Shown here: piece after piece, positions 1 to 24,424 of the stretch | Numbering within the stretch: position 1 is the first letter of the stretch | Layout of the letters: each line of letters starts with the position of its first letter | Source: Mucisphaera calidilacus | GTDB lineage: Bacteria; Planctomycetota; Phycisphaerae; Phycisphaerales; Phycisphaeraceae | Direction of reading: 5' to 3' | Length of the DNA stretch: 32,000 bases | NCBI RefSeq assembly: GCF_007748075.1 | Contig: NZ_CP036280.1 | Coordinates: forward strand, 390,001 to 422,000 | Notes under the pieces: model-generated | The model's input: only the letters and a program-made list of their open reading frames with translations | Databases searched by the model: none | What the model was told of the DNA's origin: nothing | Program-made: the position numbers and the translations under genes

Positions 1-3000
1 CGTCACCATCGACGTCGACGCGGCCAACGGCATCTTCGCACTCACCGAGACCAGCTTCATCCGTGGCGACGCCAACCTCGTCGCAGGGGCCAGCCCCGTT
101 GCCATGAGCAGCCTCGACATCAACTCAGGCGACATCGCCGACATCGCGGGCGTCATCGACTTCGCCGACGACAACTCGACCGTCAGCATCGAGACCACCA
201 ACGGCATCATCAACGTCTCGGGCAGCATTGATGCCGGCGACACCCTCACCCTCAACGGCAACACCTCAGGCAACGTCACCACGCCCGTCAGCGTGCAGAT
301 CACCAAACTCGTCTACGAGACCGTCAAGCAGACATTCCCCACCGACGACGGTGGGAACGCTCAGTTCACCATCGACCAATCCGGCAACCCGATCGACGAC
401 TTCGGCTTCCTCCTCAGCATCAACCTCGGCGGTCAGGTTGAGCTCGAACTCGATGGCGTCACACCCAAGCGGCAGCTTGACGCTGAGAACAACCCGATCC
501 TCGGCGACGGCCCTGTCTACCTGACCATCGACGGCGACGACAACCCCGTCACCGTTGACAAGCAAGGGCGCAAGCTCGAACTCCAGGGCAACGGCGACTA
601 CAACCTCGTCGACGAAGCCGGGCAACTCCTCGACGAGGCCGGTTTCGTCATCGACATCGACGGCGTGCGCCTCGACGCCAACGGCGACCGGATCAACGTC
701 TTCGGCTACCGCGTCGATGCCAACGGCAACTACCTCAACAGCACCGGTCAGACCGTCAACCTCTACGGCCAGCGTGTCGACGCCAACGGCAACCTGCTTG
801 AGAACGACGGTGCCGACAACTGGTCCGGCAACCTCGTCAACAGCGCCGGCTACCGCGTCAACAGCGACGGCCTCCTCCTCAACGCTTCCGACGGCCTGCT
901 CAACGGCGTCGGAGCTATCCGTGGTGCTGTCGATATTGGCGGAACCGACTACCTCACCGACCCGTACGGCAACCTCATCGACGACAACGGCGAACTCCTC
1001 GACGAGGCCGGCTTCCTCATCAATGAACGCGGCCAGCGCATCAACACCGACGGCACGCCGCTCTCGCCCATCGACACGCCGGTGCTCGGCGGCAACCGAG
1101 TCGCCGTCGACCCGCTGACTCTCGAGGACCCTGTCGCCGGCAACGGCACCATCGACGGCGGCGCACCCGTCACCGGAGCAGCGCCCAAGGGCACCACCGG
1201 GCACGTCGTTGTCGACCTGCCCATCCGCCAGAGCGGTGGCGTTGTCAACACCTCCGCACCCGACAGCCAGATCATCATCACCGGCACGACGGATATCGAG
1301 ATCAGCGGCATGGTCGGCCGGGCCTACATGCAGGCCGAGGAAACCGCCGTCGACACCGGCAGCGTCAGCATCACCTCGACCACCGGCGAGGCTTACATCC
1401 GCACCGATGCGCTCGTCAACGCTCAGGACGACATCAGCATCACCGCCGAGAATGTCTGGGCCCTCGACGAGTCGGTCGTCATCACTCGTGCTGACCATAG
1501 CACCACCAGCCTGGTTGCTACCGGCTCCGGCGATGACGGCAAGATCTTCATCGCACGCAGCGAGATCTACTTCTTCCGCGCCCTCGTCTCCGCTGCAGGG
1601 CAGGTCCACCTCCAGGGTAAGGACATCAACGTCTGGGGCACCATCACGGTCACCGGCGACTACGCCGATCCCGCCGAGACCACGCGATCCGCCGCGCACC
1701 TCGAAGCCGACCGGCACATCCTCGTCCGTGGCGAGATCCTCAGCTCCGGCCACGCCGACCTCGACGCCGGCCTCGCTGATATCACCGGTGCCATCGTTGT
1801 CGCCGCCGAGGGCAAGATCGCCGCCGGCTTCGAGTCTGACATCCCGGCCGACATCACGCTCGATACGCCCGGCGAGGTTTCGATCCAGTCGTACGACGAC
1901 GAAGCCAACGACGACCTCCAGTTTGCGGCGCCCTTCGTCTCCTACGAGCCCACCTTCGTCGACGTCGTCACCGGCTTCCGCCGCGTCGAGGACGGCTTCA
2001 TTCTTCGGCCTGTCTATTACTGGATCCCGACCATCACCACCGAGCAGATCGGCTACGACGAGGTGAAGGTTGGTAGTGAGTTCGGCTCCATGGAAGTCCG
2101 CCTCGAGCAGGACGGCTACGTCTACCTGGATGAGGACGGCAAACGGGTCTTCCGCGAGTACTTTGTCGAGGGCGTCGATTACAACGTCTCCGACCTCAAC
2201 TGGGACGGCAAGTACAACACCGGTGTCTTTGACTACTACGTCCTCGACGAACTCAACGGGTTCCAACTCCTCGACGAGATTGACGGTCTCGACACCGTCA
2301 TCGATCTCGTCTCCGACCTTGTTCGTGAGGATATTGGGCCGATCGTGACCTTCGCTCAGGGCGCAACCGCCGGCACTTTTGTCGGCAATCTCACCGGGTC
2401 GCCACTCGATATCCTCACGGGTGAGCCTCTGAATTTCCTCGTTAATACCTTCGACGCCTACTCCGAGGCGGACATTGTGGCCGCAGCCCTCACGGTCGCC
2501 GACACCCTGGCGATCATGAACAACGACCTCTACGTCTTCACCGACGGCATCTACACTCAGACGCCGACGAAGGCCTGGTCGGACCTGACCGACACCGAGC
2601 GTCTCAACGCCATCCTGGATTATTACGACGGCTTCAATCCTGCCGAGGACTCCGCCCGCAAGCTCTTCGACGTGAAGATGCTCTCAGGCTTCAAGAAGAC
2701 GGTCTCCACGGGTATCCCGCCGATCTTCACGCTGACCAACGCCTACGACGGCCTGTCGCGAGCCGATATCCTCGCCACCGGCTCGAACCTCACCATCGCC
2801 GACAACGCCACCTTCCAGTTCGTCGCTAATGGCGACGCGGACGCCGACACGATTACGCTGCTCAACGGCATCATGGCCACGAGCAGCTTCGCGCCGACAC
2901 TCGATGGCCTGATCTTTGAGCACGCGGGGTCCCAGCAGTTCGTCGCCGGATCGTTCATCGATAACGTGTTCCAGGCGACGCAGCTGCCGTTCAACCCGGG

Positions 3001-6000
3001 CATCCTTGGTCTCGACATCACGACGCACGAGACCACCAAGACCTACTTCGACTTCTGGATCGATCCCGATTACGCGCCCGAGGGTCTCACCCAGCAGCAG
3101 TATGTCAACGAGTTCCTCCCGGCCACCGAGATCCTCGCCGACTACGGCAACGACATCGACGCCCTCATCGCCGACACCTTTGTCGCCGGCCTCGACTACA
3201 ACGCCGGTTACGGCGACCCCAACAGCGATGATTACATCGCCAGCCTGTTCGAGCGCATGGACCAGATCCTGCTCGACCTCAACTACGAGAAGATCTACTC
3301 CGCCGACCGCGGCCTCGGCCAGATCAACCGCAACTTCGAGGGCACGCCGACCGTCGCGCTCTGGGACGTCGACGCATCATCCCAGGCTCGTGTTTACCGC
3401 GACGTCACCCTCGACGACGGCACCGGCATCAGCCTCCGTGCGCCGCAGGAGTGGTGGGACAACTACACCGTCACCGCCGTCGGCAACAACCGCACTGACC
3501 CCGACAGCAAGACGCTTCAGTACGTCGGCAATGTCGAGACCTACGACGAGACCGTCGGGCAGGTCCGTGAGGTTGCCCAGCTCCTCTACACCCAGGAGTG
3601 GTCCGCCTACACCCTCGGCCAGCCCTCCAACCCCGACCCGGGCGACCGCTGGTACACCGACATCATCCGCGACGCCGACGATGGCATCTCCGGACACAAT
3701 CCCGGCGGCTGGGTCGTCGATTACCTCCCGACGGCGTCGACCAACTGGGACGAGCCGCTGACCGCCTTCCAGCAGTACAGCATCAACGACGGTCGCGAGC
3801 ACAACGCGCTTGCCCTGCCCTTCATCTCGGATATCTACACCGGCTTCTACGAGATCGGCACGCTGGCCGTCGCCGAAGCCGATATCCAGCTGATACAGGG
3901 CGCTACCCAGCTCTACGACTCGCTCTTTGCCGAGAACATCATTGCGAGCGCCCTCAACCTCAACACCGTTGACAAGTCGGTCAAGGTCCCGTGGGAGATC
4001 GACTGGGACCGCAACGACCGCGGTTCCGTCGACGGGAATGGCAACACCTCCGGGTTTGAGTCCAACTGGCAGTACGGCGTCGATATCAACAACAACCTCG
4101 TCTACGGCCAACGCAACATCGGCAACAACCTCCTGCCGGTCGAGCAGGGCGTCAATCTCGAGGAACTCTCCAATTCATCACGCTACATCTACGACACGGC
4201 TGAGGGACGTATCTACCAGGGACGTGCCTATTACCTCACCAACGGAACCTATACCTGGGACGAGGCCCGCGACCTGCCCAACCAGTACGACTGGCTCAGC
4301 GACTACCACCTCGTCAACATCAACGACGCCTCCGAGAACGCCTACGTCGACGGCCTGACCGGCGAGTCCATCTGGCTAGGCGGCTACAACGTCAACGGCA
4401 CGTCGCACAACTCCTGGTACTTCGACTGGGACGCCGGCGGACGCATCACCCACTACAGCGGCTACAGCAACTTCCACCCCTCCGAGCCCAACAACCTCAA
4501 CGACGAAGACCACCTCCAGATGTGGAACGGCGGACTCTGGAACGACCTCGACGGGTCCAACCGGCTTCGCGCCGTCCTCGAACGCGAACCGCAATGGGGC
4601 GATATCACCGACTTCAACGAGACCTTCCGCGACTACATCTACAAGATGACCACCGACTGGAAGGACATCGAGGACATCCGGTCCGACATTACCTATCGCG
4701 TCTTCACCCAGGACCACGACATCTCCGGACGGCGCCCGCGTTATGCCACCGTCGAGAGCACCGTCCCCGTGATCAAGCTCGAGGCGGTGACCAACTGGAG
4801 CTACGAGCCCATCACCCAGCAGGCCGTCCAGTACACCAGTTCCACCGTCAACCCCGACGGTCCGGTTGACCTCACCATCTTCGACCTCGACACGCTGACC
4901 GCCTCGGGAGACGTCATCATCACCGCAGGCGATGACGCCCTGATCGACGGCAGCATCACCGCCAGCGACGCGGGTGGCGAGATCGTTATTACCTCCGCCA
5001 ACGGCAACCTCACCGTCGGCAAGGACACGCCCGTCAACCCGACCCTTCGCGACGTTGTCAATCTGACGGCCGCCGAGGCGATCGAACTCAACGCCGACAC
5101 CGGCGACGTCACGGTCGGCGAGACCGTCACGCTCATCATCACCGGCGACGAGGCCGACGGGCTCGCCGAGTCCGGCAGCCTTACCATTGATGCCGAACAG
5201 GCCGTCACCCTCGACGCCATCGTCGACGCAGCGGGCGAGATCCTGGTCTCCGCCGGTGCCGACATCACCATCACCAGCCAACTCACCGCCGGCTCTACCA
5301 TCACCGCCATTGCCGGCGACGATTTCTCCGGCAGCGGCTCGGTCATTCTTGAACCCGCCGTCACCGACGAGAGCATGTTCTCTGTCGGTGCTCGTCTCAC
5401 CGCGACCGACAGCGATGGCGCGATCACCCTCATCGCGGGCACTTTCTTCGGCGACATCACCCTCTATGACTCCACCCTCTCAGCGCACACCGTGACGCTT
5501 GAAGCCCAGGGCGGACAGATCACGCAGACAGGCGACGAGGCGACCGTTCCCGGCAATCCGACAGCAGCGCTGCCTGATTCCGCGGGTCAGATCATCGCCA
5601 ACACCCTGTACGCCACCGCCGAAATCGGCATCGATCTCAACAACACTTCCATCGCACAGGTCGACGCTGTCGTCAGCGGCGCAGGCGACCTGCTGCTCCA
5701 TGATTTCATCAGCACCGATGAAACCCTGCCGTTCGACACCGACGGGCTTGTGGTTCTCCGCCTCGAGACTGCAGATGGCTCCATCGAACTCGTTACCTCC
5801 GGTGACACTACCCTCGACAACATCCGGTCCCTCACCGACAGCCCCGACAACGACATCACCATCACCGTCAACACCGACGGCACCGGGACGCCCGAGACCG
5901 GCCTCGGGCTCATCCAGACGACCGGCCAGGGCGAGCTGCTGATCAGCGTGCAGGGCGGCCTGACCCACACCGGCGATCGTATAGCCGCCGACAGCCTCAC

Positions 6001-9000
6001 CATTGAGGCGCTCGGGACCGTCGACATCGCTACCAGCCTCGCGTCGATCACCGTCGATATGACGGGCCCCGGCAACCTGATCATTGACAACGACAGCCCC
6101 GACCTCACCCTCACCGACGTCTCCGTGCTCAACGGCGATATCCATGTCACCACCACCGGTGACCTCACCGCCCAGTCCATCACCCTGATCGCCGACTGGT
6201 ACGTCGGCCCCGATCCCGAGAACCCGACCCAAACGCTCTCCAAGCCCAACACCATCACGCTCGAGACCGCAGCCGGCAGCGACGGCGACATCACCGTCGT
6301 CTCGATCAACGGCGGCGCTTACGCCAGCACGGACACCGAGGCGAACCTCGTCCGCCTCGACATGCTCAACGCCGTTCTCCGCCAGATCGACACCGCGGAC
6401 ATCCCCGCCGAGTTCATCACTGAAGAGGCCCCCGAGGGCGAACCGGCCGTCAGCGTGATCGAACTCACGCTCGCCGAGGCCGAAGAACTCGCGGCCATCG
6501 TGCTCAACAGTTTCGCCGACGACGGCGCGCCCGACGCCATGACCGCCGCTGTCGCGCAGACGATCTACAACCGTGTCCTCGCCCTCGTTCAGTCCGTCTA
6601 TGCTGAGGACGCCACCGGTCAGGCCGATCTGCCGCCGGGTGTGAGTCTCCTGCTCTCCGACGCCGACGCCGACACCACCCAGGACGCCATTGACGAGACG
6701 CTCGCGCTCCTCACGCTCAGCAAGCCGATCTCCTCCTTCACTGCGGTCCAGCTCATCGCCGACGGCGAGGTCACCGGCCAGGACGACAACGACCCCGATA
6801 TCACCGGCGGATCGCTCATGATCCACGCCGGGGGCAGCATCACCGGTCTCAACACCGCCGTCGACAGCCTGGTTGACATCTTCTCCGACCGCGGAACCAT
6901 TGTCAGCATCAACGACAGCGATGGCATCGGCGCGGCCACCCCGGGTCTTCTCGCCTCCGTCATCAATGCGCCCCTCGCCAACACCAGTATCAACAGCATC
7001 GGCGGGCTTGTGGTCGGAACCGCCGTCGGCTCCAACCTCAATCTTGCCACCTCGCTCGGTGACATCTTCGTCACCAGCAGCGGCGAGGCCATGGCACTCA
7101 CCGCCTCCGGCAACATCAACGTCTCCGCACGCAACATCACCCTCAGCGGGCACGTGGATACGGCAGGGCGGCTCTCGGTTAACGCTCTCCAGACCCTCGA
7201 CACCTTCGGGCAGGCCGTCACCGTCAAGGCCAACGAGCTCTTCGTCAACGCCGGCCACGCCATCAATCTGGGCGGCGACCTCGCCGGCCTCGAAACCCTC
7301 GACCTCACCAGCCTCGACGACGTCAACATCCTCGACGGATCGACCGACAGGCCGGGTCTCAACGTCGCGCCGCGTACGCAGTCCCTCCAGTACCTCCTCC
7401 TGCAGGACCTCAACACCAACGCCAGCCAGCAGGCCGCGCTGGAGCGAGCCATCGTCGACCTCGAACTCGCCGTCGCTCAACGGCAGCAGGGCCAGCAGGA
7501 CGCCCTCGATATCCTCGATGCATCCAACCTCAAGACACTCCTCGGCACGCCGCTAGCGCTGCAGCAGATCCAGCTCGTTTCGCAGCTCACATCATTCGAA
7601 AACCTCATCACGCAGCAGGCCGAGATCCCGCTGCTCATCACACAGCTGCCCGAGTACCAGACCCTGCTCAGCACCCGTGCCACGACACTCGACAGCCTCG
7701 AGGGAGCCCAGTCGCAGCTCATTAACGACACCGAACGACTCATCACGATCGACGGCAACCTCGATCAGCTCACGCTCGATCTCGCGGACGTGAACAGCGA
7801 GATCGAAACTCAGCAGAGCCTGTCGACCGGACTCACCGGAGTACTCGACGATATTCTCGCTGAGATTGCTAATCGACCGAACTTCGACGAACCGACCGGC
7901 TCGGGCGAGGGGGCAGGCGTCTTCGATCTTGACGCGCTGCAGGCTATCGACCTTGCCGCACTCACCGACTCGCAACTCGCCGCCCTTCGTGACGACGTCA
8001 CGGCGAGCCGCAATCTGGTCAACGGTCAGCTCGACGAGCTGTTCGCCGACCGCAACCGCATCCAGTCGCTCATCAACGCCCCGCAGGGCCAGATCGGTGT
8101 GGTCCAGATCGAGGTTGATGGTTTCCAGCAGATCATCGACACCGCGCCCGCTCAGATCGACGCGCTGAATCTTGAGATCAACCATCTCGACGGCGCCATC
8201 ACCCAGTCCGAGATCGTCATCGAGCTTGCCAACAACCCGATCGACCAGCTGCTGCCCGAGATCAAGAGGCTTCAGCCTTATCTTGACTTGTTCTCGAAGG
8301 AGTATCAGGGCTTCTACACCGATACCTTGGAGAGAGACCTATCCGATGAGATCGCGGCTCTCCAGACCGAGATCAACAGCATGCAGATCTCGATCAACCT
8401 CCTCAACAACATCTTCGAAGTCCCCTTCGAAGACATCGGCCGGCTCATTCTCGACAATCTCTTCGAGCACGCCGACGTCCTGACTCCCGAGTACCGCCAG
8501 ATTCTCAACGACTACTTCGAGATCACAGGCGGCAAGCCCTACAAGGACATCAGCCCCGAACTCGCTGCGGTCTTCAGCCAGGCACGCAAGGACGCCAACC
8601 GCGAACGTGGCATCCTCCAGGAAATGCTCCCCGGTAGGATCAAAGATCTGCAGACGCTCCAGAGTCAGCAGGAAGAGCTCGAGCCCGACTTCCGCACCCT
8701 CGCGTACGCCCTCGGCGAAGTCGAACTCCAGCAGCTCAACAAGGATCTTTCTGCTGCGACCAACCAGCGTGATGACCTCCAGCGTGACCTCAACATCGCC
8801 ATCGAGAGCCTCCCCGGGGCTCAGAGCAATCTCAATAATCTCGTCGCCGAACGCGGTCAGCTCAACACCACCATCGCGGGTCTGAACAGCGACATCCTCG
8901 GATTCACCACGACACTCGACAACCTTGTCGTCCAGGAAACCAGCCTTCATCAGCAGATCGACGACAACATCCAGCTTGTCAGCAGCAGCCGCCTGAACCT

Positions 9001-12000
9001 CGGCTCCGACCTCCTCAGCGACCAGTCGATCCAGCTCGACAGTCTCGGTCAGATTTTCGAGGCTCAGATTCTTCAGACCAACGACGTGATCGCTGATACC
9101 GTCGACGCCTATCGTGACAATCTCGGTGCCGACAAGGCTCAGCTCGAGCAACTCAAGGCTCAGCTCAACAGCCTCAAGACCACCGGCAACAGCATCGCCG
9201 CCCAGTTGCAGGCCGCGCAGAACGCCACCGGCGGCGCCACCAGCATCCGCATCGACGCCGGCGGTTTTACCTCCGAACAGGACCTGAGCAACTTCAACCT
9301 GAACCTGCAGAACGCCAGCAGCGAGGAAACGCTCGATGAGGGCGACCCGATTCTCCGCGAGGCGAACTCCGGCTATCAGGTCTACCGCAACGTGGATACC
9401 GAGGAGCTCTATTACCGCGCCGCGGACGACGTCGAGAACGGCGACACCAACAACCGCGGCGACGACGCCTTCTATCTGTGGCGTGACTCCGTGGAACGCG
9501 ACCCTCAGACCGAAGAAGCCTTCTACACCGACCGCGCCACTGGACTTCAGTACGCCTGGCAGCAAGGCGTTCTCGATGACTTCTACGCCTTCGATTTCTC
9601 CTACTCGCGATCCGTCCTCGTTGACACAACTTCCGAGACCCGCACCGAGACGCGGCCCGACGACGGTACCTCCTACACGATCACCCTCAATCACCCGCTC
9701 TTCGAAGTGACCGACCAGCACGGCCGGCTCCTCATCGACGCCGACGATCCCGACACCTTCATCAGCGGTTTCGAGGACACGCAGTCAGCCGCCGACCACA
9801 TGTTCGTCACCCGCGAGCTCACGCCGGGTCAGCGCGAAGTCGTTTCCCTGACGCATGCCCTCCAGGACGCCATCGGCGGCGATGTCACGATTCACATCCT
9901 CGCCGAGGGTGAATCACTGCCGAGCCTGAGCGAGGGCGACGTCGTTGTCCGCCTGCTCAACTTCAACCCGGTGTTCCGACAGGTCCCCGCGAACGAGATC
10001 AGCTACACCAACCCCGACACCTACACGGACCAGGTGGTCGAGGAACTTCCCGACGACTATCAGGAATACAAGCACAACGGACAGGTTCTCGAGCCCGTCA
10101 TCATCGAGCAGCAGGGGGTCCTCGGCGTCACCGCGCAGAGCGTCTCCACGACCGACTTCATCTACTTCTTTGGCAGCCGCATCGACGGCCTGAATTCTGA
10201 ACTCAACCTCAGCACCGACGACCTCCGCATCCAGACCATCGACACCATTACCTCCGCTGCGCAGCTCGCCGGCTCCACCGTAGCGCGACTCGTCGCCGGC
10301 AACGCCATCGATCTGCTCGAGGGCGCACAGATCAACGGCGGCGACGTGATCCTCAACGCCTTCAACGGCCAGATCACCGGTCTCGAAGCCCTCGTCTCGG
10401 GTGATGATGTCGAAGCGAGCGCATCGGGCGGCATCCAACTCGGCACCGACGCCAGCACACTCCTGCTCTACGACAACAACGGCGACATCGTCATCCTCAA
10501 TACCTCCGCCTCCAGTAGCCCGATCGAGGTCAGTGAGGCCTTCACCAGCGGCAACGTCCAGATCGTCGCCAACAACCAGATCATCATCGACGAGATCGAG
10601 GGCGCCACCATCCTCGCCAACAGCACCGGCGCCGGACTCACCCTCCGCAGCTTCATCGACGCGACAGGCAACGTCTTCCTCGCAGCAGCACGCGACATCG
10701 ACGACGATCAGGCCGGCTCGCAGGTCAACGCCTCGTTCATCGCCGTCTCTTCCGGTCTCAACTTCCTCGCCAACACGCAGCAGTGGTCCGGGGAAACCAG
10801 CACCTTCACCAATTACAACCTCCTGCTCACTCAGGACATGATCGACTCCGGCGAGTTCAGCAACGTCGACATCAACGGCGATATCTTCATCGACGACAAC
10901 CTCGTCAGCACCCAGGACATCAATCTGTCCGCCAGCAACATCCGTTTCGGCAGCAACGCGGCCCTGAGCACCGCCGGTGATCTCGTTCTCAACGCGACGC
11001 AGTCGCTGATCCTGCCCGCCGTTCAGGCCGCCACGCTGGACCTCGACGGCCTCGGCGGCATGAGCCCGACCATCGCCGGCCGCGGTCTCACCCTCAATGC
11101 GCCGGTCATCCTCAACGCTGAGCGTAACCTGCTCGCCGCCGACACCCTCACGCTCGAAACCCTCGACGGCCTCGGGCTCAACCTCGACGCGCGTCGTGTC
11201 GACGCCATCCTCAACGGCCTGGGAAGCCTCGACCTCAACAGCCTCGGATCCGTGGAGCTTGGCGACATCCAGATCGCGCAGGGCGGCATCAACGTCGACG
11301 CTACCGGCAACATCATCGCTCGCAACATCAGCCTCGACCAGAACCGCTACGACGCCGGCGTCTCCCTCAACACCGAAGGCGAACTGCTCATCGATCAGCT
11401 CGTTCTCGGCGTCTGGAACACGCTCGAACTCAACGGCACCGCGGCCAACCGCAACCTCAGCAACACCCTCGACCTCAACTTCAGCGACGCGCCGCCCACC
11501 GATGTCACCGCCGGCGAGGAACTCTTCCTCGATCTGGTCGCGCTCGATCCGACACGCGTCTTCGCCGCCGAGTCCGGCCAACTCACTCTCGAGATCAACC
11601 TCGGTGACGGCACGACCCGGACCTTCAGTCTCAACACGGCCACCGACACCACGACCGAACGCCGATCCAACCAGACCCTGACCTCATCCCTTGCTGACAA
11701 CACCTTCGGCCAGACCCTCGCCGTCGGTGACGTCAACGGTGACGGCTTTGACGACCTCGTCGTCGCTCAGCAGGATTTCAGTTTCGGCCGTCTCGTCTTC
11801 GAAGACTTCGGCCGGGTAAACGTCTATCACGGCGACACCAAGGGGCTCAGCAACACACCCAGTCAGGCTTTTAACGGCAATACCCGGTTCAACGGTTACG
11901 GCACGTCCGTTGCTGTTCTCGACCTCAACGGCGACGGCTACGACGACATGATCGTTGCCGAACCCGGTTACCAGGGCTTCGTTACCGAGCAGACCGTCAA

Positions 12001-15000
12001 TGCCGACGGAACTATCTCAACGACCACACGCTCCGTCAACGGTGCCTACCACACCTATCTCGGTTCGGCGGGTGGTCTATTCCTCGCCGAAGACCCCATC
12101 ATCGTCGAGAATCTCAAGACCGTCGTTAACGCGGGTGACGTCAACGGCGACGGCCTCGAAGACCTTCTCGTGACGCGCGTCTTCGACGACGGCAAGACCA
12201 ACCAGACCAGTATTGACGTCTACTTCGGCGGCGACAGTCGTCCGAACCCAGAGGCAGCCTGGACTTACGACGCGACCGCCGACGGTCTCACGCAGGCCCT
12301 CAGCGCCCGGGGCAACGGTGACCTCAACGGTGACGGCTACGCCGATATCGTCATCAGCCCTGCGACCGGACCGGACGCCAAGGCAGTTGTCTTCTTCGGC
12401 TCACCCACGGGCCCGGACCTTGTCCCGACGACCTACACCGCCCCCGCTTACGCGGGCAACGACCCGACCACCGACGCCATCTTCGCTGGTGATCTCAACA
12501 ACGATGGCATCGACGACCTCGCCATCAGTGCAGGCTCTGAGAAGGGCGGCATCGTCTACGCCTACCTCGGCTCCGCGGGCGACATCAGCACCGACCAGCC
12601 CTGGATGACCTACACCGCCCCCGCAGGCACCAGCGGTTTCGGCTTCAACCTCCAGGCCGTTGGCGACAGCAACCACGACGGCTTCAACGACCTCGTGATC
12701 GCCGCGCTCGACAACAACGGCGACCGTGTCAACTATCTCGCCCTTGGTGGCAGTGACGCGACGCGACCACAGCTCCTAATCCTCGAAACGATCATTGACA
12801 GCCCCAACGCCAGCACACCCGAACGCCTCGTCACACCCGCCGCCGACTTCACGGGCGACGGTCACTACGACTTTGCTGTAACGGGCGGCACGCGTGGCGA
12901 ACTGGGCAGTGTTGATATCTACTACAGCCAACTCACCAACCTGTTCCCCGCCTTCCTCGACAGCGTTGAACTCGTACACAGCTACGCCACACCGGGTAAC
13001 TACAACATCACCGCACGCCTGCTCGATGGCGACGACAGCGTCGGCTCGCTCGCGCACCGTGTTACCGTCAGTGAAGACGTCACCGGGCCTGTCGCCACGC
13101 TGATCCGTCCGGCCAGCAACAGCCTCAGCCTCACCGATCCGGGCTTCGTCGATATCCGCTGGACAGCCGACCTCGGCATCGACAGCAAATCCATCGGAAC
13201 CAACGACATCACCATCGACGGCGTTTCCATCGACCGCGTCGAGTCACGCGGCGGCGGTGTCTACCGCTACCACTACGCCGACGACGCCGACCAACTCCCG
13301 GGCGGCGAGAACATCGTGAATCAGGCCGCCGGTGCCGTCACCGATGTGCAGGGCCAGCCCGCAGAGGCACGGCAGGTCGATTCCTTCTCCATCGGCACCC
13401 TTGCCGTCAGCATTCAGGGCCAGACCAGCATCGATCAGGGCGAGAACGCAGGCTTCACCGCCAGCGTCACCGATCTCACCAACGCCGGCCAGTACACCTA
13501 CGCATGGGACTTTGGCGACGGCACCGGGTTAACCGGCTCCGACACCGTTCAGCACACCTACGACAACAACGGCACCTATGCCGTCAGCCTCACCATCACC
13601 AACGGCGCCGGCCAGATCGCTTCCACATCCCTCACACTCACCGTCAACAACCTCGCCCCAACGATCGAAAGCCTTACCGGTGATACCGCTGGCGACGAGG
13701 GGCAGACCCTCAGCTTCGACGCCTCTGCCAGCGACCCCCAAGGCGGCAGCCTCACCTACACATGGGACTTCGGCGACGGCTCACAGGGACAGACCGGGCT
13801 CAACCTCACCAGCCCGTCGCACACCTACACCGACAACGGAAGCTACACCGTTTCTCTCACCGTTACCGACGGCCAGGGTGGCTCCGACAGCCAGACACGC
13901 AGCGTCACCATCAGCAACGTCGCGCCGACCATCCTCCAACTCAACGCGCCCGCCACGACCCAGCAGGGCAAGCTCATCACCCTGACCGCCCTCGCCTCAG
14001 ACCCCGGCGACGACACGCTTACCTACACGTGGGACCTCGGCGACGGAACCACCTACAGCGACTACACCGAGAACGACGTCTTCCACATCTACGAGACCCC
14101 GGGCACCTACACCGTCCAACTCACCGTGACGGACGACGATGGCGACAGCGTCTCGACCCTGCGAACCATCACCGTCGACAACGTTGCTCCCACTGTCGCA
14201 CCGATCGGCGGCACCACGACCGGCGTCGAGGGTGGCAGTTTCTTCTTCGCGAGCTTCGCCGAGGACGCGGGCAACTATTACACCTCACTTGACTACACGT
14301 GGGACTTCAACGACGGCACCGAGCCTGTCACCGGCCCGGATCTTTCTTCCGTCCAGCACACCTTCGTCGACGACGGGATCTACACCGTTTCTCTTACCGC
14401 TACCGACGCCCAGGGCGCGTCCACCACACGCACGCTGAACGTCACTGTCAGCAACGCGGCGCCCGTCATCAGCAACATCCAGTTCCCCGGATCCGCCACC
14501 CAGAATCAGTCGGTCACACTCACCGCCGACTTCACCGACGTCGGATTCGACGACAGCCACACCGCCACCATCGACTGGGGCGACGGCTCGACCTCTCAAG
14601 CGGTGGTGACGCCGACCATCGACGGTGCGGGCAGCCTTGCCGCCGATCACACCTACGACGTGCCCGGCAGCTTCAACGTCACCATCACCCTCAATGACGG
14701 ACGCGATGACGCCGTCGACGAGACGGCCATCACGATCACGCCAGCGGTCGTGCCGACGATCACCGGGACCGCCGTCAACAACGGCGACCCCCAGCGATCC
14801 GAGATCTATGTCATCACTGTCAACTTCAACACACCGGTTCACCTCGAGCCCAACGCGATTCGCGTGACCACACTCGGCAACGATGACGTCAGCGGCAGCG
14901 TCGCGCTCTCACCCGACCGCACCTCCGCAACCTTCTTCCTCGCACAGTCACTGGCCAACGGCACCTACAGGTTCATCGTTGACGCCAACCTCGTCACCGA

Positions 15001-15631
15001 CGATTTCGGCACACGCCTGGATGCCGGGTTGAGCCAATCCGTGATCAAGCTCGCGGGCGACTTCGACGGCAGCGGAACGCTCGGCAGCCCCGACCTCGAC
15101 CTGCTCTACAGCGGTTCCAGCGAGCAGAGTTATCTCGACCTCGACCGTGATCAGGACGTCGACGGACAGGACGCCGTTCTCTGGGCGACCGGATCGAGTT
15201 ACTTCAACACGCTGCCCGGTGACGCCAACCTCGACCGCACCGTCAACCTCCTCGACCTGAGTGCTCTGGCCAGCAGCTTCAACAGCACCACCTCGCGATG
15301 GACGCAGGGCGACTTCAATGGCGACGGAAGAACCAACCTTCTCGACCTCAGCGCTCTGGCCAGCAACTTCAATCAGGACGCCGAAGAACTGCCCGCTCCG
15401 CCGCCGATCACTCCCAGCACGCCCGGCCGTGTCGCGCAGACCCAGTACGACCAGCAGAGCGCTCAGCGATGGGGAGAGTCTCGTCGTCACACCGCCAGAC
15501 AGGACCTGCGTCTCTACGACGCCGATCAGGGTGTGCTTGGCGACGACAGAGACGACGACGTCTTCAGCACACACACGGCTTTGCCGGTCAACCCCGAATC
15601 CACCAGCCTGCAGCGTCTCGGGCTGCGTTGA
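1..15631 (+). CDS. Giant secreted/cell-surface mosaic adhesin-like protein, 5'-partial (>5,175 aa visible)
   Basis: One uninterrupted frame (phase of nt 2) runs from the left edge to TGA at 15629-15631. The 34 codons before the first ATG (104) have no stop and read VTIDVDAANGIFALTETSFIRGDANLVAGASPVA, the same repeat style as downstream, so the gene continues upstream. C/G-ending codon usage throughout. Modules are listed separately. Confidence 0.93.
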   Translation, partial: VTIDVDAANGIFALTETSFIRGDANLVAGASPVAMSSLDINSGDIADIAGVIDFADDNSTVSIETTNGIINVSGSIDAGDTLTLNGNTSGNVTTPVSVQITKLVYETVKQTFPTDDGGNAQFTIDQSGNPIDDFGFLLSINLGGQVELELDGVTPKRQLDAENNPILGDGPVYLTIDGDDNPVTVDKQGRKLELQGNGDYNLVDEAGQLLDEAGFVIDIDGVRLDANGDRINVFGYRVDANGNYLNSTGQTVNLYGQRVDANGNLLENDGADNWSGNLVNSAGYRVNSDGLLLNASDGLLNGVGAIRGAVDIGGTDYLTDPYGNLIDDNGELLDEAGFLINERGQRINTDGTPLSPIDTPVLGGNRVAVDPLTLEDPVAGNGTIDGGAPVTGAAPKGTTGHVVVDLPIRQSGGVVNTSAPDSQIIITGTTDIEISGMVGRAYMQAEETAVDTGSVSITSTTGEAYIRTDALVNAQDDISITAENVWALDESVVITRADHSTTSLVATGSGDDGKIFIARSEIYFFRALVSAAGQVHLQGKDINVWGTITVTGDYADPAETTRSAAHLEADRHILVRGEILSSGHADLDAGLADITGAIVVAAEGKIAAGFESDIPADITLDTPGEVSIQSYDDEANDDLQFAAPFVSYEPTFVDVVTGFRRVEDGFILRPVYYWIPTITTEQIGYDEVKVGSEFGSMEVRLEQDGYVYLDEDGKRVFREYFVEGVDYNVSDLNWDGKYNTGVFDYYVLDELNGFQLLDEIDGLDTVIDLVSDLVREDIGPIVTFAQGATAGTFVGNLTGSPLDILTGEPLNFLVNTFDAYSEADIVAAALTVADTLAIMNNDLYVFTDGIYTQTPTKAWSDLTDTERLNAILDYYDGFNPAEDSARKLFDVKMLSGFKKTVSTGIPPIFTLTNAYDGLSRADILATGSNLTIADNATFQFVANGDADADTITLLNGIMATSSFAPTLDGLIFEHAGSQQFVAGSFIDNVFQATQLPFNPGILGLDITTHETTKTYFDFWIDPDYAPEGLTQQQYVNEFLPATEILADYGNDIDALIADTFVAGLDYNAGYGDPNSDDYIASLFERMDQILLDLNYEKIYSADRGLGQINRNFEGTPTVALWDVDASSQARVYRDVTLDDGTGISLRAPQEWWDNYTVTAVGNNRTDPDSKTLQYVGNVETYDETVGQVREVAQLLYTQEWSAYTLGQPSNPDPGDRWYTDIIRDADDGISGHNPGGWVVDYLPTASTNWDEPLTAFQQYSINDGREHNALALPFISDIYTGFYEIGTLAVAEADIQLIQGATQLYDSLFAENIIASALNLNTVDKSVKVPWEIDWDRNDRGSVDGNGNTSGFESNWQYGVDINNNLVYGQRNIGNNLLPVEQGVNLEELSNSSRYIYDTAEGRIYQGRAYYLTNGTYTWDEARDLPNQYDWLSDYHLVNINDASENAYVDGLTGESIWLGGYNVNGTSHNSWYFDWDAGGRITHYSGYSNFHPSEPNNLNDEDHLQMWNGGLWNDLDGSNRLRAVLEREPQWGDITDFNETFRDYIYKMTTDWKDIEDIRSDITYRVFTQDHDISGRRPRYATVESTVPVIKLEAVTNWSYEPITQQAVQYTSSTVNPDGPVDLTIFDLDTLTASGDVIITAGDDALIDGSITASDAGGEIVITSANGNLTVGKDTPVNPTLRDVVNLTAAEAIELNADTGDVTVGETVTLIITGDEADGLAESGSLTIDAEQAVTLDAIVDAAGEILVSAGADITITSQLTAGSTITAIAGDDFSGSGSVILEPAVTDESMFSVGARLTATDSDGAITLIAGTFFGDITLYDSTLSAHTVTLEAQGGQITQTGDEATVPGNPTAALPDSAGQIIANTLYATAEIGIDLNNTSIAQVDAVVSGAGDLLLHDFISTDETLPFDTDGLVVLRLETADGSIELVTSGDTTLDNIRSLTDSPDNDITITVNTDGTGTPETGLGLIQTTGQGELLISVQGGLTHTGDRIAADSLTIEALGTVDIATSLASITVDMTGPGNLIIDNDSPDLTLTDVSVLNGDIHVTTTGDLTAQSITLIADWYVGPDPENPTQTLSKPNTITLETAAGSDGDITVVSINGGAYASTDTEANLVRLDMLNAVLRQIDTADIPAEFITEEAPEGEPAVSVIELTLAEAEELAAIVLNSFADDGAPDAMTAAVAQTIYNRVLALVQSVYAEDATGQADLPPGVSLLLSDADADTTQDAIDETLALLTLSKPISSFTAVQLIADGEVTGQDDNDPDITGGSLMIHAGGSITGLNTAVDSLVDIFSDRGTIVSINDSDGIGAATPGLLASVINAPLANTSINSIGGLVVGTAVGSNLNLATSLGDIFVTSSGEAMALTASGNINVSARNITLSGHVDTAGRLSVNALQTLDTFGQAVTVKANELFVNAGHAINLGGDLAGLETLDLTSLDDVNILDGSTDRPGLNVAPRTQSLQYLLLQDLNTNASQQAALERAIVDLELAVAQRQQGQQDALDILDASNLKTLLGTPLALQQIQLVSQLTSFENLITQQAEIPLLITQLPEYQTLLSTRATTLDSLEGAQSQLINDTERLITIDGNLDQLTLDLADVNSEIETQQSLSTGLTGVLDDILAEIANRPNFDEPTGSGEGAGVFDLDALQAIDLAALTDSQLAALRDDVTASRNLVNGQLDELFADRNRIQSLINAPQGQIGVVQIEVDGFQQIIDTAPAQIDALNLEINHLDGAITQSEIVIELANNPIDQLLPEIKRLQPYLDLFSKEYQGFYTDTLERDLSDEIAALQTEINSMQISINLLNNIFEVPFEDIGRLILDNLFEHADVLTPEYRQILNDYFEITGGKPYKDISPELAAVFSQARKDANRERGILQEMLPGRIKDLQTLQSQQEELEPDFRTLAYALGEVELQQLNKDLSAATNQRDDLQRDLNIAIESLPGAQSNLNNLVAERGQLNTTIAGLNSDILGFTTTLDNLVVQETSLHQQIDDNIQLVSSSRLNLGSDLLSDQSIQLDSLGQIFEAQILQTNDVIADTVDAYRDNLGADKAQLEQLKAQLNSLKTTGNSIAAQLQAAQNATGGATSIRIDAGGFTSEQDLSNFNLNLQNASSEETLDEGDPILREANSGYQVYRNVDTEELYYRAADDVENGDTNNRGDDAFYLWRDSVERDPQTEEAFYTDRATGLQYAWQQGVLDDFYAFDFSYSRSVLVDTTSETRTETRPDDGTSYTITLNHPLFEVTDQHGRLLIDADDPDTFISGFEDTQSAADHMFVTRELTPGQREVVSLTHALQDAIGGDVTIHILAEGESLPSLSEGDVVVRLLNFNPVFRQVPANEISYTNPDTYTDQVVEELPDDYQEYKHNGQVLEPVIIEQQGVLGVTAQSVSTTDFIYFFGSRIDGLNSELNLSTDDLRIQTIDTITSAAQLAGSTVARLVAGNAIDLLEGAQINGGDVILNAFNGQITGLEALVSGDDVEASASGGIQLGTDASTLLLYDNNGDIVILNTSASSSPIEVSEAFTSGNVQIVANNQIIIDEIEGATILANSTGAGLTLRSFIDATGNVFLAAARDIDDDQAGSQVNASFIAVSSGLNFLANTQQWSGETSTFTNYNLLLTQDMIDSGEFSNVDINGDIFIDDNLVSTQDINLSASNIRFGSNAALSTAGDLVLNATQSLILPAVQAATLDLDGLGGMSPTIAGRGLTLNAPVILNAERNLLAADTLTLETLDGLGLNLDARRVDAILNGLGSLDLNSLGSVELGDIQIAQGGINVDATGNIIARNISLDQNRYDAGVSLNTEGELLIDQLVLGVWNTLELNGTAANRNLSNTLDLNFSDAPPTDVTAGEELFLDLVALDPTRVFAAESGQLTLEINLGDGTTRTFSLNTATDTTTERRSNQTLTSSLADNTFGQTLAVGDVNGDGFDDLVVAQQDFSFGRLVFEDFGRVNVYHGDTKGLSNTPSQAFNGNTRFNGYGTSVAVLDLNGDGYDDMIVAEPGYQGFVTEQTVNADGTISTTTRSVNGAYHTYLGSAGGLFLAEDPIIVENLKTVVNAGDVNGDGLEDLLVTRVFDDGKTNQTSIDVYFGGDSRPNPEAAWTYDATADGLTQALSARGNGDLNGDGYADIVISPATGPDAKAVVFFGSPTGPDLVPTTYTAPAYAGNDPTTDAIFAGDLNNDGIDDLAISAGSEKGGIVYAYLGSAGDISTDQPWMTYTAPAGTSGFGFNLQAVGDSNHDGFNDLVIAALDNNGDRVNYLALGGSDATRPQLLILETIIDSPNASTPERLVTPAADFTGDGHYDFAVTGGTRGELGSVDIYYSQLTNLFPAFLDSVELVHSYATPGNYNITARLLDGDDSVGSLAHRVTVSEDVTGPVATLIRPASNSLSLTDPGFVDIRWTADLGIDSKSIGTNDITIDGVSIDRVESRGGGVYRYHYADDADQLPGGENIVNQAAGAVTDVQGQPAEARQVDSFSIGTLAVSIQGQTSIDQGENAGFTASVTDLTNAGQYTYAWDFGDGTGLTGSDTVQHTYDNNGTYAVSLTITNGAGQIASTSLTLTVNNLAPTIESLTGDTAGDEGQTLSFDASASDPQGGSLTYTWDFGDGSQGQTGLNLTSPSHTYTDNGSYTVSLTVTDGQGGSDSQTRSVTISNVAPTILQLNAPATTQQGKLITLTALASDPGDDTLTYTWDLGDGTTYSDYTENDVFHIYETPGTYTVQLTVTDDDGDSVSTLRTITVDNVAPTVAPIGGTTTGVEGGSFFFASFAEDAGNYYTSLDYTWDFNDGTEPVTGPDLSSVQHTFVDDGIYTVSLTATDAQGASTTRTLNVTVSNAAPVISNIQFPGSATQNQSVTLTADFTDVGFDDSHTATIDWGDGSTSQAVVTPTIDGAGSLAADHTYDVPGSFNVTITLNDGRDDAVDETAITITPAVVPTITGTAVNNGDPQRSEIYVITVNFNTPVHLEPNAIRVTTLGNDDVSGSVALSPDRTSATFFLAQSLANGTYRFIVDANLVTDDFGTRLDAGLSQSVIKLAGDFDGSGTLGSPDLDLLYSGSSEQSYLDLDRDQDVDGQDAVLWATGSSYFNTLPGDANLDRTVNLLDLSALASSFNSTTSRWTQGDFNGDGRTNLLDLSALASNFNQDAEELPAPPPITPSTPGRVAQTQYDQQSAQRWGESRRHTARQDLRLYDADQGVLGDDRDDDVFSTHTALPVNPESTSLQRLGLR
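583..1065 (+). repeat. About 14 short degenerate repeats, G-x-(R/L)-(V/I/L)-(D/N)-x-(N/D)-G, every 9-12 residues (beta-hairpin-type; YD/Rhs-like or cell-wall/glucan-binding-repeat-like, unresolved)
   Basis: Translation reads DEAGQLLDEAGFVIDIDGVRLDANGDRINVFGYRVDANGNYLNSTGQTVNLYGQRVDANGNLLEN ... NSAGYRVNSDGLLLNASDGLLNG ... DPYGNLIDDNGELLDEAGFLINERGQRINTDG. Confidence 0.5.
1232..1900 (+). repeat. Beta-helix-like repeat array 1 (haemagglutinin/autotransporter-passenger-style degenerate repeats)
   Basis: Runs such as IIITGTTDIEISG, GSVSITSTTGEAYIRTDALVNAQDDISITAENV, QVHLQGKDINVWGTITVTG and GAIVVAAEGKIAAG. Alternating hydrophobic/polar pattern with G/D/T/N turns. Confidence 0.5.
4205..4590 (+). 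other. C-type lectin-like domain with EPN and WND motifs, lacking all canonical cysteines
   Basis: YYLTNGTYTWDEARDL ... HLVNINDASENAYV ... IWLGGYN ... WYFDWDAGG ... YSNFHPSEPNN (EPN = 4484-4492) ... EDHLQMWNGGLWNDLDGS (WND = 4538-4546) matches the CTLD consensus order. No Cys is present. Confidence 0.7.
4870..7350 (+). repeat. Beta-helix-like repeat array 2, interrupted around 6300-6760 by a helical A/L/E-rich insert
   Basis: Repeats such as SGDVIITAGDDALIDGSITASDAGGEIVITSANGNLTVG, GDVTVGETVTLIITG, GEILVSAGADITITSQLTAGSTITAIAG, GDIHVTTTGDLTAQSITLIA and SGNINVSARNITLSGHVDTAGRLSVNA. Confidence 0.55.
7379..9235 (+). other. Segmented coiled-coil region of about 615 aa (Q/L/E/D/N-rich heptad-like sequence)
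   Basis: From QSLQYLLLQDLNTNASQQAALERAIVDLELAVAQRQQGQQDAL through LEQLKAQLNSLKTTGNSIAAQLQAAQNA. Glycine and proline are far sparser than in the flanking repeat arrays, clustering mainly at short breaks such as NRPNFDEPTGSGEGAG and TGGKPYKDISPE. Composition shifts abruptly relative to the flanking G/D/T-rich arrays. Confidence 0.65.
10120..11490 (+). repeat. Beta-helix-like repeat array 3
   Basis: LNLSTDDLRIQTIDTITSA, GAQINGGDVILNAFNGQITG, GNVQIVANNQIIIDEIEG, NIRFGSNAALSTAGDLVLNATQSLILP and GGINVDATGNIIARNISLD. Confidence 0.5.
11684..12935 (+). repeat. Seven FG-GAP/VCBS-type repeats (integrin-alpha-like 7-bladed beta-propeller)
   Basis: Seven Ca-binding-type loops at roughly 180-nt spacing: GDVNGDGFDDLVVA (11726), LDLNGDGYDDMIVA (11921), GDVNGDGLEDLLVT (12134), GDLNGDGYADIVIS (12313), GDLNNDGIDDLAIS (12488), GDSNHDGFNDLVIA (12662) and ADFTGDGHYDFAVT (12841). 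Each is followed by a (V/I)Y(H/F/L)G-type strand. Confidence 0.8.
13401..14743 (+). repeat. Five tandem PKD domains
   Basis: Five units of about 87 aa, each with (Y)TWDFGDG / TIDWGDG and H(T)Y...G.Y.V.LT(V)TD motifs, separated by N(V/L/A)AP(T/V)I linkers. Example: YTWDFGDGSQGQTGLNLTSPSHTYTDNGSYTVSLTVTDGQGGSDSQTRSVTISNVAPTI. Confidence 0.85.
15052..15375 (+). repeat. Dockerin-like EF-hand repeats (two pairs) at the C-terminus of the giant protein
   Basis: GDFDGSGTLGSPDLDLLY, LDRDQDVDGQDAVLW, GDANLDRTVNLLDLSALASSFN and GDFNGDGRTNLLDLSALASNFN. Same cassette as in four downstream proteins. Confidence 0.7.
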
Positions 15632-19411: not shown

Positions 19412-19483
19412 GGCATGGTTGTCCGGTTTAGGCGTCGCTCAGAGTACCAATGGGTCAGAAAAAACGGTTTCGAGTCACTTGAC

Positions 19484-19530
19484 TAAATGCATTTATCATA
19501 TAGGCTAGAGAAGATAAGTAAAAGCATTTA
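19484..19530. promoter_or_regulatory. Candidate operator pair in the GH31/LacI divergent promoter region
   Basis: Perfect 12-bp palindrome TAAATGCATTTA (19484-19495) and a one-mismatch copy TAAAAGCATTTA (19519-19530), 35 bp centre to centre. A third GCATTT sits at 19540-19545. The first site abuts a TTGACT hexamer (19479-19484). The region is 35-42% G+C by hand count. Confidence 0.4.
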
Positions 19531-19582
19531 GTTGCCTCGGCATTTGTTTTCTTACTACATCTCAATCACTCAGGCTCGCAGC

Positions 19583-20665
19583 GTGACACAAGCAACCCGT
19601 ACAACAGGAAAAGGCGAAAAGCCGGTCACCACGCTGTCCGCTCTGGCTCGTCACGTCGGCGTTTCACCAACGACCGTCTCTTTCGTGCTCAACGGCAAGG
19701 CCGCTGAGCGGAAAATCTCTGTCGAGACGGTTCAGCGTGTCCTCGCCGCCGCGAAAGACGTCAACTACACCCCCAATGCACTCGCACGCGGTCTCCGCCA
19801 GAAGAAGACGCACGCCATCGGCGTCGTGTTCCCGCACCTCCGCAACGACTGGGCCCACCTGATCATGCGCGGCGTCGTGGAGGAACTCGGAGCTTCGGAG
19901 ACCGTCCCCATGATTGTCTGTCATCACGGCGACGCCGAACTCGAAGCGCGACTGCTCCGTTCGCTGGTCGAGCGACGCGTCGACGGCATCATCTGCAATC
20001 CGCTACGCAACGGCATGGACCGGTACCGCGACGTTGTCCGCCGTGGGGTTCCGTTGATCTTCCTCGGCGACGCCCCCAAGGGACTCGACGAGATTCCCTG
20101 CTCGGCGTGGGATCCCGCTGCCGTGCACCTGGCCGTGGAACACCTGCTGGCGTTGGGGCATCGACGCATCGTCTATCTCGGGAGCCGTGATAATCGCGTG
20201 ATCTCTGAGGCCCGGCGGCATGTCTTCTGGGACAGCCTCAGGCAAGCCGGATTGTCGCCTTCCCGTCGCGACATCATCCTGAGCAGCACGTCCGAGGACG
20301 TGGGCGATGGACCGCTGGAGTTGCTCCGCGGTGAGAACCCACCCACGGCGTTCTTCGTCGAGTACGACGATCAGGCTGTCAGCCTGTACCAGCTCCTCGA
20401 TGACGCCGGCGTAGCGTGTCCCCGTAACGTCTCGATCGCCACCATGGGTGGTTCGCCTCGGAGTGTGTCCGCGGGTTGCTGTCTGACGACCGTCTCAGCC
20501 CCGGTGGTCGATGAGGGACGCGCGTGCGCACAACGACTCATGAGCATGATCGATGAACCCGAGCACAAGCCCGAACGGGCGTATGTGCACGGCGGATCGC
20601 TTCTCGTCGGACAGACCACGGGGCCTGTCGCGAACTCGAAACCCGGATCCCGAGGGACACCATGA
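19583..20665 (+). CDS. LacI/GalR-family transcriptional regulator
   Basis: [26 protein letters not shown]...[38 protein letters not shown] followed by a periplasmic-binding-protein-like sugar-binding core. Start uncertain: GTG 19583 is preferred. The TTG 19532 in the ORF track would add an AT-rich extension that overlaps the candidate operator. Confidence 0.85.
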
Positions 20666-21462: not shown

Positions 21463-21515
21463 TACTGACCTGATCACATTTGTGTGCTTTACTTTGCTGG
21501 ATGGAGAATATCGAC

Positions 21516-23483: not shown

Positions 23484-23565
23484 TCAGGCCCCTACGCCTG
23501 CCGGATAACCCGATTCGCGACTGGCTTCTATTCACCCTTTCCTGATCACTGGAGGAGAAAGCATC

Positions 23566-24345: not shown

Positions 24346-24357
24346 GCCTCCTCCTGA

Positions 24358-24392: not shown

Positions 24393-24424
24393 AGCTGTGG
24401 CCGAGTCATCGTGAGGTCGTCCGG

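Follow-up and report, generated by a model that had tools for sequence, protein, structure and literature searches.

A giant cysteine-free protein of Mucisphaera calidilacus, a probable calcium-dependent fibrillar adhesin of a conserved acidic family

RTX adhesins, such as LapA of Pseudomonas fluorescens, MpIBP of Marinomonas primoryensis, FrhA of Vibrio cholerae and AhLap of Aeromonas hydrophila, are free of cysteine, and RTX blocks typify the substrates of type I secretion. In these adhesins, a single acidic chain of megaprotein size folds with calcium into a fibre that carries sugar-binding modules distally (PMC12077191). Giant genes are numerous in Planctomycetes, where they were predicted to serve adhesion and carbohydrate binding (2016; PMC5177795), and planctomycete dockerins without cellulases have been described (PMC6461901). 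The papers on the giant genes of planctomycetes and Omnitrophota give only domain-based predictions of function (PMC5177795; bioRxiv 10.1101/2023.11.21.568195). Here we analysed 32,000 nucleotides of Mucisphaera calidilacus (contig NZ_CP036280.1, positions 390,001 to 422,000; this whole stretch is called the window), which open inside a giant gene. We consider, with a probability of roughly 0.6, that this gene, whose C-terminal part lies in the window, encodes an exported, calcium-dependent fibrillar surface adhesin that belongs to a conserved, acidic family free of cysteine or nearly so. To our knowledge, no planctomycete giant gene has been functionally characterised, and we know of no described export route for proteins this large.

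A glycan-binding attachment fibre had already been proposed for this gene in the original prediction, a description made from the letters of the window alone, and it appears to be the best reading, because the protein is a mosaic of extracellular-type modules with an intact and conserved lectin site. The giant chain would cross the envelope unfolded, which would explain selection against cysteine, and would fold outside the cell once calcium is bound by its lectin site, its dockerin and the loops of its propeller. The resulting long fibre would bind mannose- or glucose-type sugars with its lectin domain, while the variable C-terminal cassette would bind other partners or dock to a cohesin-type protein. 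Giant surface genes in Planctomycetes and RTX-type fibrillar adhesins are known already; new are the unannotated two-class family, the heptad stalk, the disulfide-free lectin and the swappable RTX or dockerin end. An anonymous giant ORF (open reading frame) becomes in this way a defined conserved family, with an intact-site lectin, a heptad stalk, a propeller and an exchangeable C-terminal cassette.

Compared with RTX adhesins, the protein is likewise an acidic, cysteine-free and apparently calcium-dependent single-chain megaprotein, it has a long repetitive or fibrous body with sugar- and ligand-binding modules and a variable C-terminal region (PMC12077191), and one member of its family ends in a strong RTX block followed by a tail. 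Unlike them, the window copy lacks the RTX nonapeptide and has dockerin-like modules there instead, its body consists of beta-arrays and a coiled coil and not of tandem identical Ig extenders, its tail is atypical for a type I signal, and the window holds no type I secretion genes. The gene (at least 15.6 kb) also resembles the planctomycetal giant genes of more than 5 kb (PMC5177795) in its Planctomycetota-type context, its adhesion and carbohydrate modules and its largely unannotated sequence, but those genes form a size category, whereas here we describe a specific colinear family with defined modules. With cellulosomal or "planctosome" dockerin-cohesin systems it shares a type I dockerin, that is a duplicated calcium-loop/helix segment at the C-terminus; it differs in that the window ORFs contain no cohesin, the bearer has more than 5,000 aa and is not an enzyme, and an 84-aa tail follows the dockerin. 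Finally, the giant proteins of Omnitrophota (bioRxiv 10.1101/2023.11.21.568195) are alike, by their description alone, in being PVC-related megaproteins with dockerin-type and beta-helical segments, large unannotated stretches that call for structure prediction, and secretion or carbohydrate genes nearby. Their N-termini bear signal peptides or C39 domains; that of the window protein lies beyond the edge.

The giant gene and its modules

The giant ORF (2–15631, forward strand) is free of stop codons from the first base of the window and ends with the TGA at 15629–15631 (5,209 codons). It had rightly been described as open at the left edge, but the minimum of 5,175 aa given for it was counted from the first ATG at position 104; relatives align from residue 1 on, so that 5,209 aa is the true minimum. 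By an estimate from base composition, a stop-free run of 5,209 codons at 63% GC would occur by chance with a probability of about e^-147. The DNA repeats within the gene have all diverged (identity of about 85% at most), thus collapse or expansion of the assembly is unlikely.

A computational recount bore out the absence of cysteine (0 of 5,209 aa). TGY codons occur 73 and 110 times in the other two forward frames of the gene, and the ten neighbouring ORFs contain 27 cysteines in 5,141 aa (0.53%), which gives a probability of about 1e-12 for finding none in 5,209; the depletion is therefore non-random and not an effect of composition. The most frequent residues are Asp (10.4%), Leu (10.1%), Thr (9.9%), Gly (9.2%) and Ala (9.0%), followed by Asn (6.2%), with Arg at 3.2% and Lys at 0.94%. 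This agrees with the earlier description of Asp, Thr, Gly, Asn and Leu dominating over sparse Lys and Arg, apart from the minor point that Ala stands above Asn. The protein is indeed hyper-acidic (pI 4.05, net charge -560), but this is no distinguishing trait, since the secreted proteins encoded nearby have a pI of 4.05–4.7 and acidity is thus common to the giant protein and its neighbours. We also noted a GC skew of about -0.2 and an AT skew of about +0.15 over window positions 1–15000, against about -0.05 and 0 over 16000–32000; the skew across the giant gene is presumably an effect of the codon and amino-acid composition of an Asp/Thr/Asn-rich protein.

The modules of the window protein are given below with their nucleotide positions, strand and residues.

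2–15631, +: 3' part of the giant gene, running in from the window edge; 5,209 codons and a TGA, no cysteine
2–301, +: tail of a beta-strand array that starts upstream (aa 1–100); aligns to P0001 from aa 602, P0003 from aa 1598 and the L004 ORF from aa 1125
611–1066, +: heptapeptide repeat (aa 204–355); about 20 tandem units of G-x-x-(hydrophobic)-(D/N)-x-x
1199–1921, +: beta-strand array 1, solenoid-like (aa 400–640); short serial strands in the AlphaFold2 model, pLDDT 60–75 in part
1907–2119, +: junction module (aa 636–706), the most conserved part; DDLQFAAPFVSYEP...WIPTITTEQ...
2150–4201, +: family-specific globular region without known relative (aa 717–1400); aa 1043–1348 are 45–50% identical between members
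4214–4591, +: C-type lectin-like domain (aa 1405–1530), from profile and HMMER homology; EPN and WND motifs
4859–6301, +: beta-strand array 2 (aa 1620–2100), colinear in P0002, P0003, L002, L004 and L006; without PDB or Pfam match
6779–7372, +: beta-strand array 3 (aa 2260–2457); AlphaFold2 strands, pLDDT 50–66
7373–9313, +: segmented alpha-helical, heptad-periodic region (aa 2458–3104), from AlphaFold2 helices and periodicity
9314–10186, +: conserved domain without assigned fold (aa 3105–3395), with YAWQ... and VEELP... motifs
10199–11491, +: beta-strand array 4 (aa 3400–3830); weak match to the putative adhesin 3ljy (E = 0.03)
11684–12931, +: seven FG-GAP repeats, an integrin-alpha-type propeller (aa 3895–4310), by Pfam
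13409–14716, +: five PKD domains (aa 4470–4905), by Pfam; DNA copies 60–75% identical
15053–15376, +: dockerin-like region (aa 5018–5125); Dockerin_1 match at aa 5072–5122 (nt 15215–15367)
15377–15628, +: hydrophilic C-terminal tail (aa 5126–5209), from LPAPPP on; relatively Arg-rich, no transmembrane helix in any frame

Pfam matches were confined to the last quarter of the protein, where the integrin-type propeller, PKD domains and dockerin-like repeats that had been recognised from the letters alone all scored above the Pfam thresholds. In particular, we detected FG-GAP (E = 2e-32, 7 stretches), with six D-x-N-x-D-G-x-x-D calcium loops at aa 3910–4222, PKD_4 (E = 5e-83, 5 stretches) and Dockerin_1 (27.5 bits against a cut-off of 22.9). 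The dockerin comprises two 22-residue calcium-loop/helix segments, which are 75% identical to each other at the DNA level and 47% identical to the dockerin of a 468-aa protein also encoded in the window. That such module types are rarely seen in one polypeptide was an overstatement, as relatives, too, combine FG-GAP with dockerin and with PKD or cadherin. No Pfam or NCBIfam family scored above threshold in aa 1–3900, and sequence searches against the PDB with aa 1–1400, 1561–2460 and 3081–3900 returned nothing; the only PDB sequence match within aa 1–3900 was the lectin-like stretch. The A3 profile matched a putative adhesin alone in the PDB, and only marginally. About 3,700 residues of the protein match nothing known, and these residues in each copy, together with the beta-array and junction module that more than a hundred other large proteins share, are structurally and functionally dark.

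The conserved body and its family

Relatives were sought by a word-index search of 5.8 billion proteins and by an exhaustive HMMER search of 1.84 billion representatives. The former returned very few relatives, none of them annotated, and the latter 312 proteins at E ≤ 1e-3; no annotation of the family was found in any source searched. We identified a family of at least seven members, from Thermoguttaceae, Phycisphaerae and metagenomes, which align colinearly with the window protein along thousands of residues (26–55% identity) and are all acidic and free of cysteine or nearly so.

P0002, Thermoguttaceae metagenome-assembled genome: 3,373 aa, no cysteine
P0003, Phycisphaerae SM23_30: 3,992 aa, no cysteine
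L002, L003 and L004, ENA contigs: fragmented, cysteines not counted as one chain
L005, JGI contig: 2,721 aa, 1 cysteine
L006, JGI contig Ga0123519_10000277: 5,331 aa, 6 cysteines

The few cysteines in the ENA gene calls sit in plainly out-of-frame stretches. The members share a conserved body, made of beta-strand arrays, the heptapeptide stretch, the globular region, the C-type lectin-like domain (CTLD) and the heptad-periodic stalk of about 650 aa, followed by a C-terminal cassette that consists of the FG-GAP propeller, PKD or cadherin-like Ig domains and then, depending on the member, dockerin-like modules or RTX repeats.

The lectin-like domain matched CD23, mannose-binding protein and the mannose receptor over the whole domain in phmmer (E = 1e-4), and a profile of four family sequences matched CD23 with E = 1.8e-9 along with dozens of other C-type lectins; the exhaustive HMMER matches to this region include strong Pfam Lectin_C proteins. 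The EPN motif (aa 1495–1497, nt 4484–4492), the Glu that follows it and the WND motif (aa 1513–1515, nt 4538–4546) align with the residues of calcium site 2 and the sugar site and are kept in all six family members examined. The lectin-like domain with an EPN motif that had been noted earlier is thus supported by homology to solved CTLDs, and we regard it, from these alignments, as a genuine CTLD. It resembles the mannose-binding type (MBP-A, CD23, DC-SIGN; Lectin_C) in its full-domain alignment and in its WIGL-like and W-x-W-x-D-G motifs. Unlike that type, it has lost both disulfides, with all canonical cysteine positions substituted (H, G and L are aligned there), and Pfam Lectin_C gave no match on the window protein even at E ≤ 5, below the gathering score. 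We rejected the cysteine-free lectin domain as a novelty, as disulfide-free versions are common in bacteria: about half of the unrelated bacterial CTLD matches have EPN/WND and no cysteine.

The very long coiled coil of the original prediction stood in part. The region at aa 2458–3104 is rich in helix-forming residues, AlphaFold2 predicted helices of up to 68 residues in it, and its heptad periodicity (z = 6.6) was reached by none of 2,000 shuffles; we also found weak matches to SMC proteins, and the counterpart in P0002 is about 1,000 aa long. Runs free of Pro and Gly do not exceed 37 residues, however, which makes the region a segmented coiled-coil-like stalk and not one continuous rod. The hairpin repeats correspond to about 20 units of 7 residues (21 nt) at aa 204–355 (DNA period of 21 nt, periodicity z = 4.9 against shuffles, weak match to DUF3659), with a hairpin fold that is only putative. 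Likewise, the beta-helix-like arrays are present as beta-strand arrays, but there are at least four of them and not three, and that they form beta-helices is a reasonable guess from the models.

AlphaFold2 was run on aa 401–1600 (alignment of 4 sequences) and on aa 2251–3450 (2 sequences), with mean pLDDT values of 34.8 and 38.7, respectively. Serial short strands with pLDDT 50–75 appeared in two of the at least four arrays. The segment-wise prediction that had been suggested was therefore usable for secondary structure and two short beta arrays, but not for the three-dimensional fold, and a Foldseek search of the PDB with the aa 401–1600 model had no match at E ≤ 0.001.

Part of the body has a wider distribution. 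The stretch at aa 405–740 (array 1 and junction) has counterparts of about 30% identity in over 50 further large protein fragments poor in cysteine (among P0027–P0151), and none of five large proteins sharing this module had a Pfam match. These bearers make up a broader dark superfamily of giant proteins with beta arrays.

The full protein has at least about 6,800 aa, because P0003, itself incomplete at both ends, extends 1,597 residues upstream of window residue 1, which corresponds to P0003 residue 1598. Upstream of the part seen in the window, P0003 (aa 1–1300), P0004, P0005 and P0007 are built from an unannotated domain of about 120 aa that is repeated in tandem and shows the motif ...T(L/V)D(I/L)T(I/V)...N(T/S)...DL(V/I)DDIN.AL...; by analogy, these repeats may serve as the extenders do in RTX adhesins. 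In L004 (1–25169; ENA ERZ21869602 ctg93666l), five consecutive calls on the same strand have 3,569, 881, 1,650, 1,722 and 6,357 aa. The 1,722/6,357 junction is a frameshift, with the homologous peptide reading through in the downstream frame, and the 1,650 and 1,722 calls are continuous via two further frameshifts. At the 3,569/881 and 881/1,650 junctions, calls and open frames overlap in different frames, and these two look like further frameshifts. The five calls would then be one gene of about 42 kb and about 14,000 aa, two of whose four junctions were followed through. On this comparison, the full length of the window gene is put at no less than about 6,800 aa and may extend to about 14,000 aa. 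The Met of P0007 was rejected as a true N-terminus, as the frame continues upstream through two frameshifts. The 1,199-aa relative P0004 carries the NCBI label "Halobacteria archaeon". Its contig measures 3.6 kb, and the protein shares 61% identity with the Phycisphaerae one, so that a bacterial contig assigned to the wrong bin is the probable explanation; the sample may have been hypersaline.

The C-terminal cassette and export

The FG-GAP propeller was found in every family member whose region was readable, and the cassette differs beyond it. In the window protein, it is followed by five PKD domains, an Ig-like stretch, the dockerin-like modules and the 84-aa tail; in L005, by cadherin-like domains, two dockerin-like segments and a PKD domain; and in L006, by cadherin-like domains, He_PIG, an RTX block (HemolysinCabind, E = 3e-43, six stretches) and a tail of about 130 aa. 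The upstream part of L004 contains internal RTX-like nonapeptides. The RTX and dockerin endings give a concrete lead on export. Since L006 ends in a strong RTX block, we favour a type I-like, C-terminus-directed route, which for the window protein itself is a tentative reading by analogy. Unfolded export directed by the C-terminus is also the most attractive account of the full avoidance of cysteine, as RTX adhesins are alike in this respect.

Several results weigh against the adhesin reading, and in particular against a type I-like route. The window protein has no GGxGxD motif in its 5,209 aa and no HemolysinCabind match, and no ABC transporter, membrane-fusion or TolC-type gene is present among the ten ORFs of the 16 kb downstream. 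Type I secretion signals occupy the last ~60 aa, are not cleaved, are rich in D, L, T, V, I and F and poor in R, K, E and P (PMC8861453), whereas the last 60 aa of the window protein contain Arg and Pro (10 K+R+H, 11 D+E), which is atypical for such a signal. We found no clear shared feature in the C-terminal tails of the window protein, L005 and L006 when these were compared for a common signal. Among open papers, no literature linking Planctomycetota to RTX or type I adhesins was found. No N-terminus of any family member lies in the sequence recovered, which leaves room for a Sec signal. Finally, as both AlphaFold2 models were poor, the beta-array and globular folds are predicted only.

A PEP-CTERM anchor hidden after the dockerin was ruled out, because the 84-aa tail is hydrophilic and no frame encodes a transmembrane helix. 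The LPAPPP of the giant protein occupies the position that the VPAP...TM...RR PEP-CTERM signal takes in the 468-aa dockerin protein (TM, transmembrane helix).

In its broadest form, the proposal would be that a Planctomycetota-wide family of about 7,000–14,000 aa is the counterpart of the RTX adhesins in this phylum, with an interchangeable RTX beta-roll or dockerin end and with the dockerin co-opted as a calcium-driven folding ratchet, or anchor, of C-terminus-first export. We consider this doubtful; if true, the protein could be a major part of unexplained surface fibres or holdfast.

The alternative that survives best is a surface scaffold exported by Sec and held at the cell by dockerin-cohesin docking, in the manner of a cellulosome or "planctosome". 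An unseen N-terminal signal would be combined with a type II-like or other outward step, and the dockerin would plug into a cohesin anchor or recruit enzymes. The above-threshold Dockerin_1 at the C-terminus speaks for it, as does the Sec signal with PEP-CTERM anchor of the second dockerin protein of the window (468 aa). L005, too, has dockerin-like modules, and directly downstream of its giant gene (8479–9198) lies a 239-aa protein that has a signal peptide and resembles a dockerin at its C-terminus, where Dockerin_1 stays below threshold; it is a possible partner protein. Moreover, a non-cellulolytic cohesin/dockerin complex has been proposed in Planctomycetes (PMC6461901), and the giant genes of Omnitrophota adjoin type II-like secretion loci (bioRxiv 10.1101/2023.11.21.568195). 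Pseudopilin-like genes encoding N_methyl/DUF1559 proteins are also found near the window gene. Such genes are, however, very abundant in planctomycete-type genomes, which makes their adjacency weak evidence. In addition, no ORF of the window has a match to a Cohesin domain, the N-terminus lies beyond the window, so that no signal peptide is seen, and total avoidance of cysteine would be less expected of a folded type II substrate that passes through the periplasm. Overall, such a scaffold is a possible but clearly weaker account than a calcium-dependent fibrillar adhesin.

Neighbouring genes and less probable readings

The giant gene adjoins an alpha-glucan locus and is convergent with it, as had been stated, with 153 bp between its stop codon and that of the GH31 gene. 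The ORFs of interest in the remainder of the window are the following.

15785–27349: alpha-glucan locus, with a 1,208-aa GH31 protein (-), a LacI regulator and a 974-aa GH66 protein (E = 1e-174 to Glyco_hydro_66)
20662–21462, +, and 28612–29325, -: prepilin-type N-methylation (N_methyl) proteins, one of them with DUF1559
21480–23483, +, and 27465–28523, +: acidic ORFs with weak PEP-CTERM matches
29359–30765, -: 468-aa dockerin protein; Sec signal and complete PEP-CTERM signal, with VPAP, a transmembrane helix and RR

We take the pair of GH66 and GH31 to indicate the use of dextran-type alpha-1,6-glucan or isomalto-oligosaccharide and not of a starch-type glucan. An attachment fibre coupled to this locus would keep the cell attached to particles of dextran or alpha-glucan during their degradation by GH31 and GH66, and this functional link had been part of the original prediction. 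GH31 is the neighbouring gene, in convergent orientation, with GH66 and LacI beyond, an EPN-type lectin site can in principle take glucose, and the giant genes of Omnitrophota lie near carbohydrate-import genes (bioRxiv 10.1101/2023.11.21.568195). Being convergent, however, the giant gene and GH31 are separate transcription units, and the locus has a regulator of its own. L005 and L006, the two family members with a readable 3' flank, have no GH31 or GH66 beside the homologous giant gene, and the lectin domain, about 3,700 residues from the C-terminus, is conserved whatever the context. To judge from these comparisons, a tie beyond adjacency is unsupported, and we consider the coupled fibre unlikely. 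Two over-readings are corrected in this way, as the link to the glycoside hydrolases lacks support and neither the acidity nor the cysteine-free lectin domain is unique.

Even less probable is a TpsA-type exoprotein of two-partner secretion or contact-dependent systems, in which an N-terminal TPS domain would lead a beta-helix like that of filamentous haemagglutinin to an Omp85-type TpsB. Many TpsA proteins have no cysteine, and the several long beta-strand arrays and the absence of cysteine would fit. Foldseek did match the HpmA and HxuA TPS domains, but only marginally and without significance (E = 2–3), and from a poor model. The upstream pieces of L004 (3,569, 881 and 1,722 aa) have no Pfam match on record, hence no Haemagg_act, Fil_haemagg was not matched anywhere in the Pfam scans, and a C-terminal propeller, PKD domains and dockerin are not TpsA-like.

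Finally, it is highly improbable that the gene is non-functional, whether as a pseudogene, a chimera of the assembly or an ORF called too long. Frameshifts do interrupt the homologous loci L002, L003 and L004, but they look like indel errors in contigs with names in the style of long-read assemblers. The window copy is uninterrupted over 15.6 kb, colinear with the intact ORFs of P0002, P0003 and L006 (three independent assemblies), free of near-identical repeats and conserved in its lectin site residues.

In L006, the 6.5 kb that lie 3' of the RTX-ending homologue (15998–22538) contain no ORF of at least 80 aa on the + strand and no Rfam match. The N_methyl/DUF1559 proteins of the window are a hallmark of Planctomycetota-type genomes. 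Judging from the 468-aa protein and from the weak PEP-CTERM matches of the two acidic ORFs, an exosortase system is apparently present in the source organism, which combines dockerin with PEP-CTERM.

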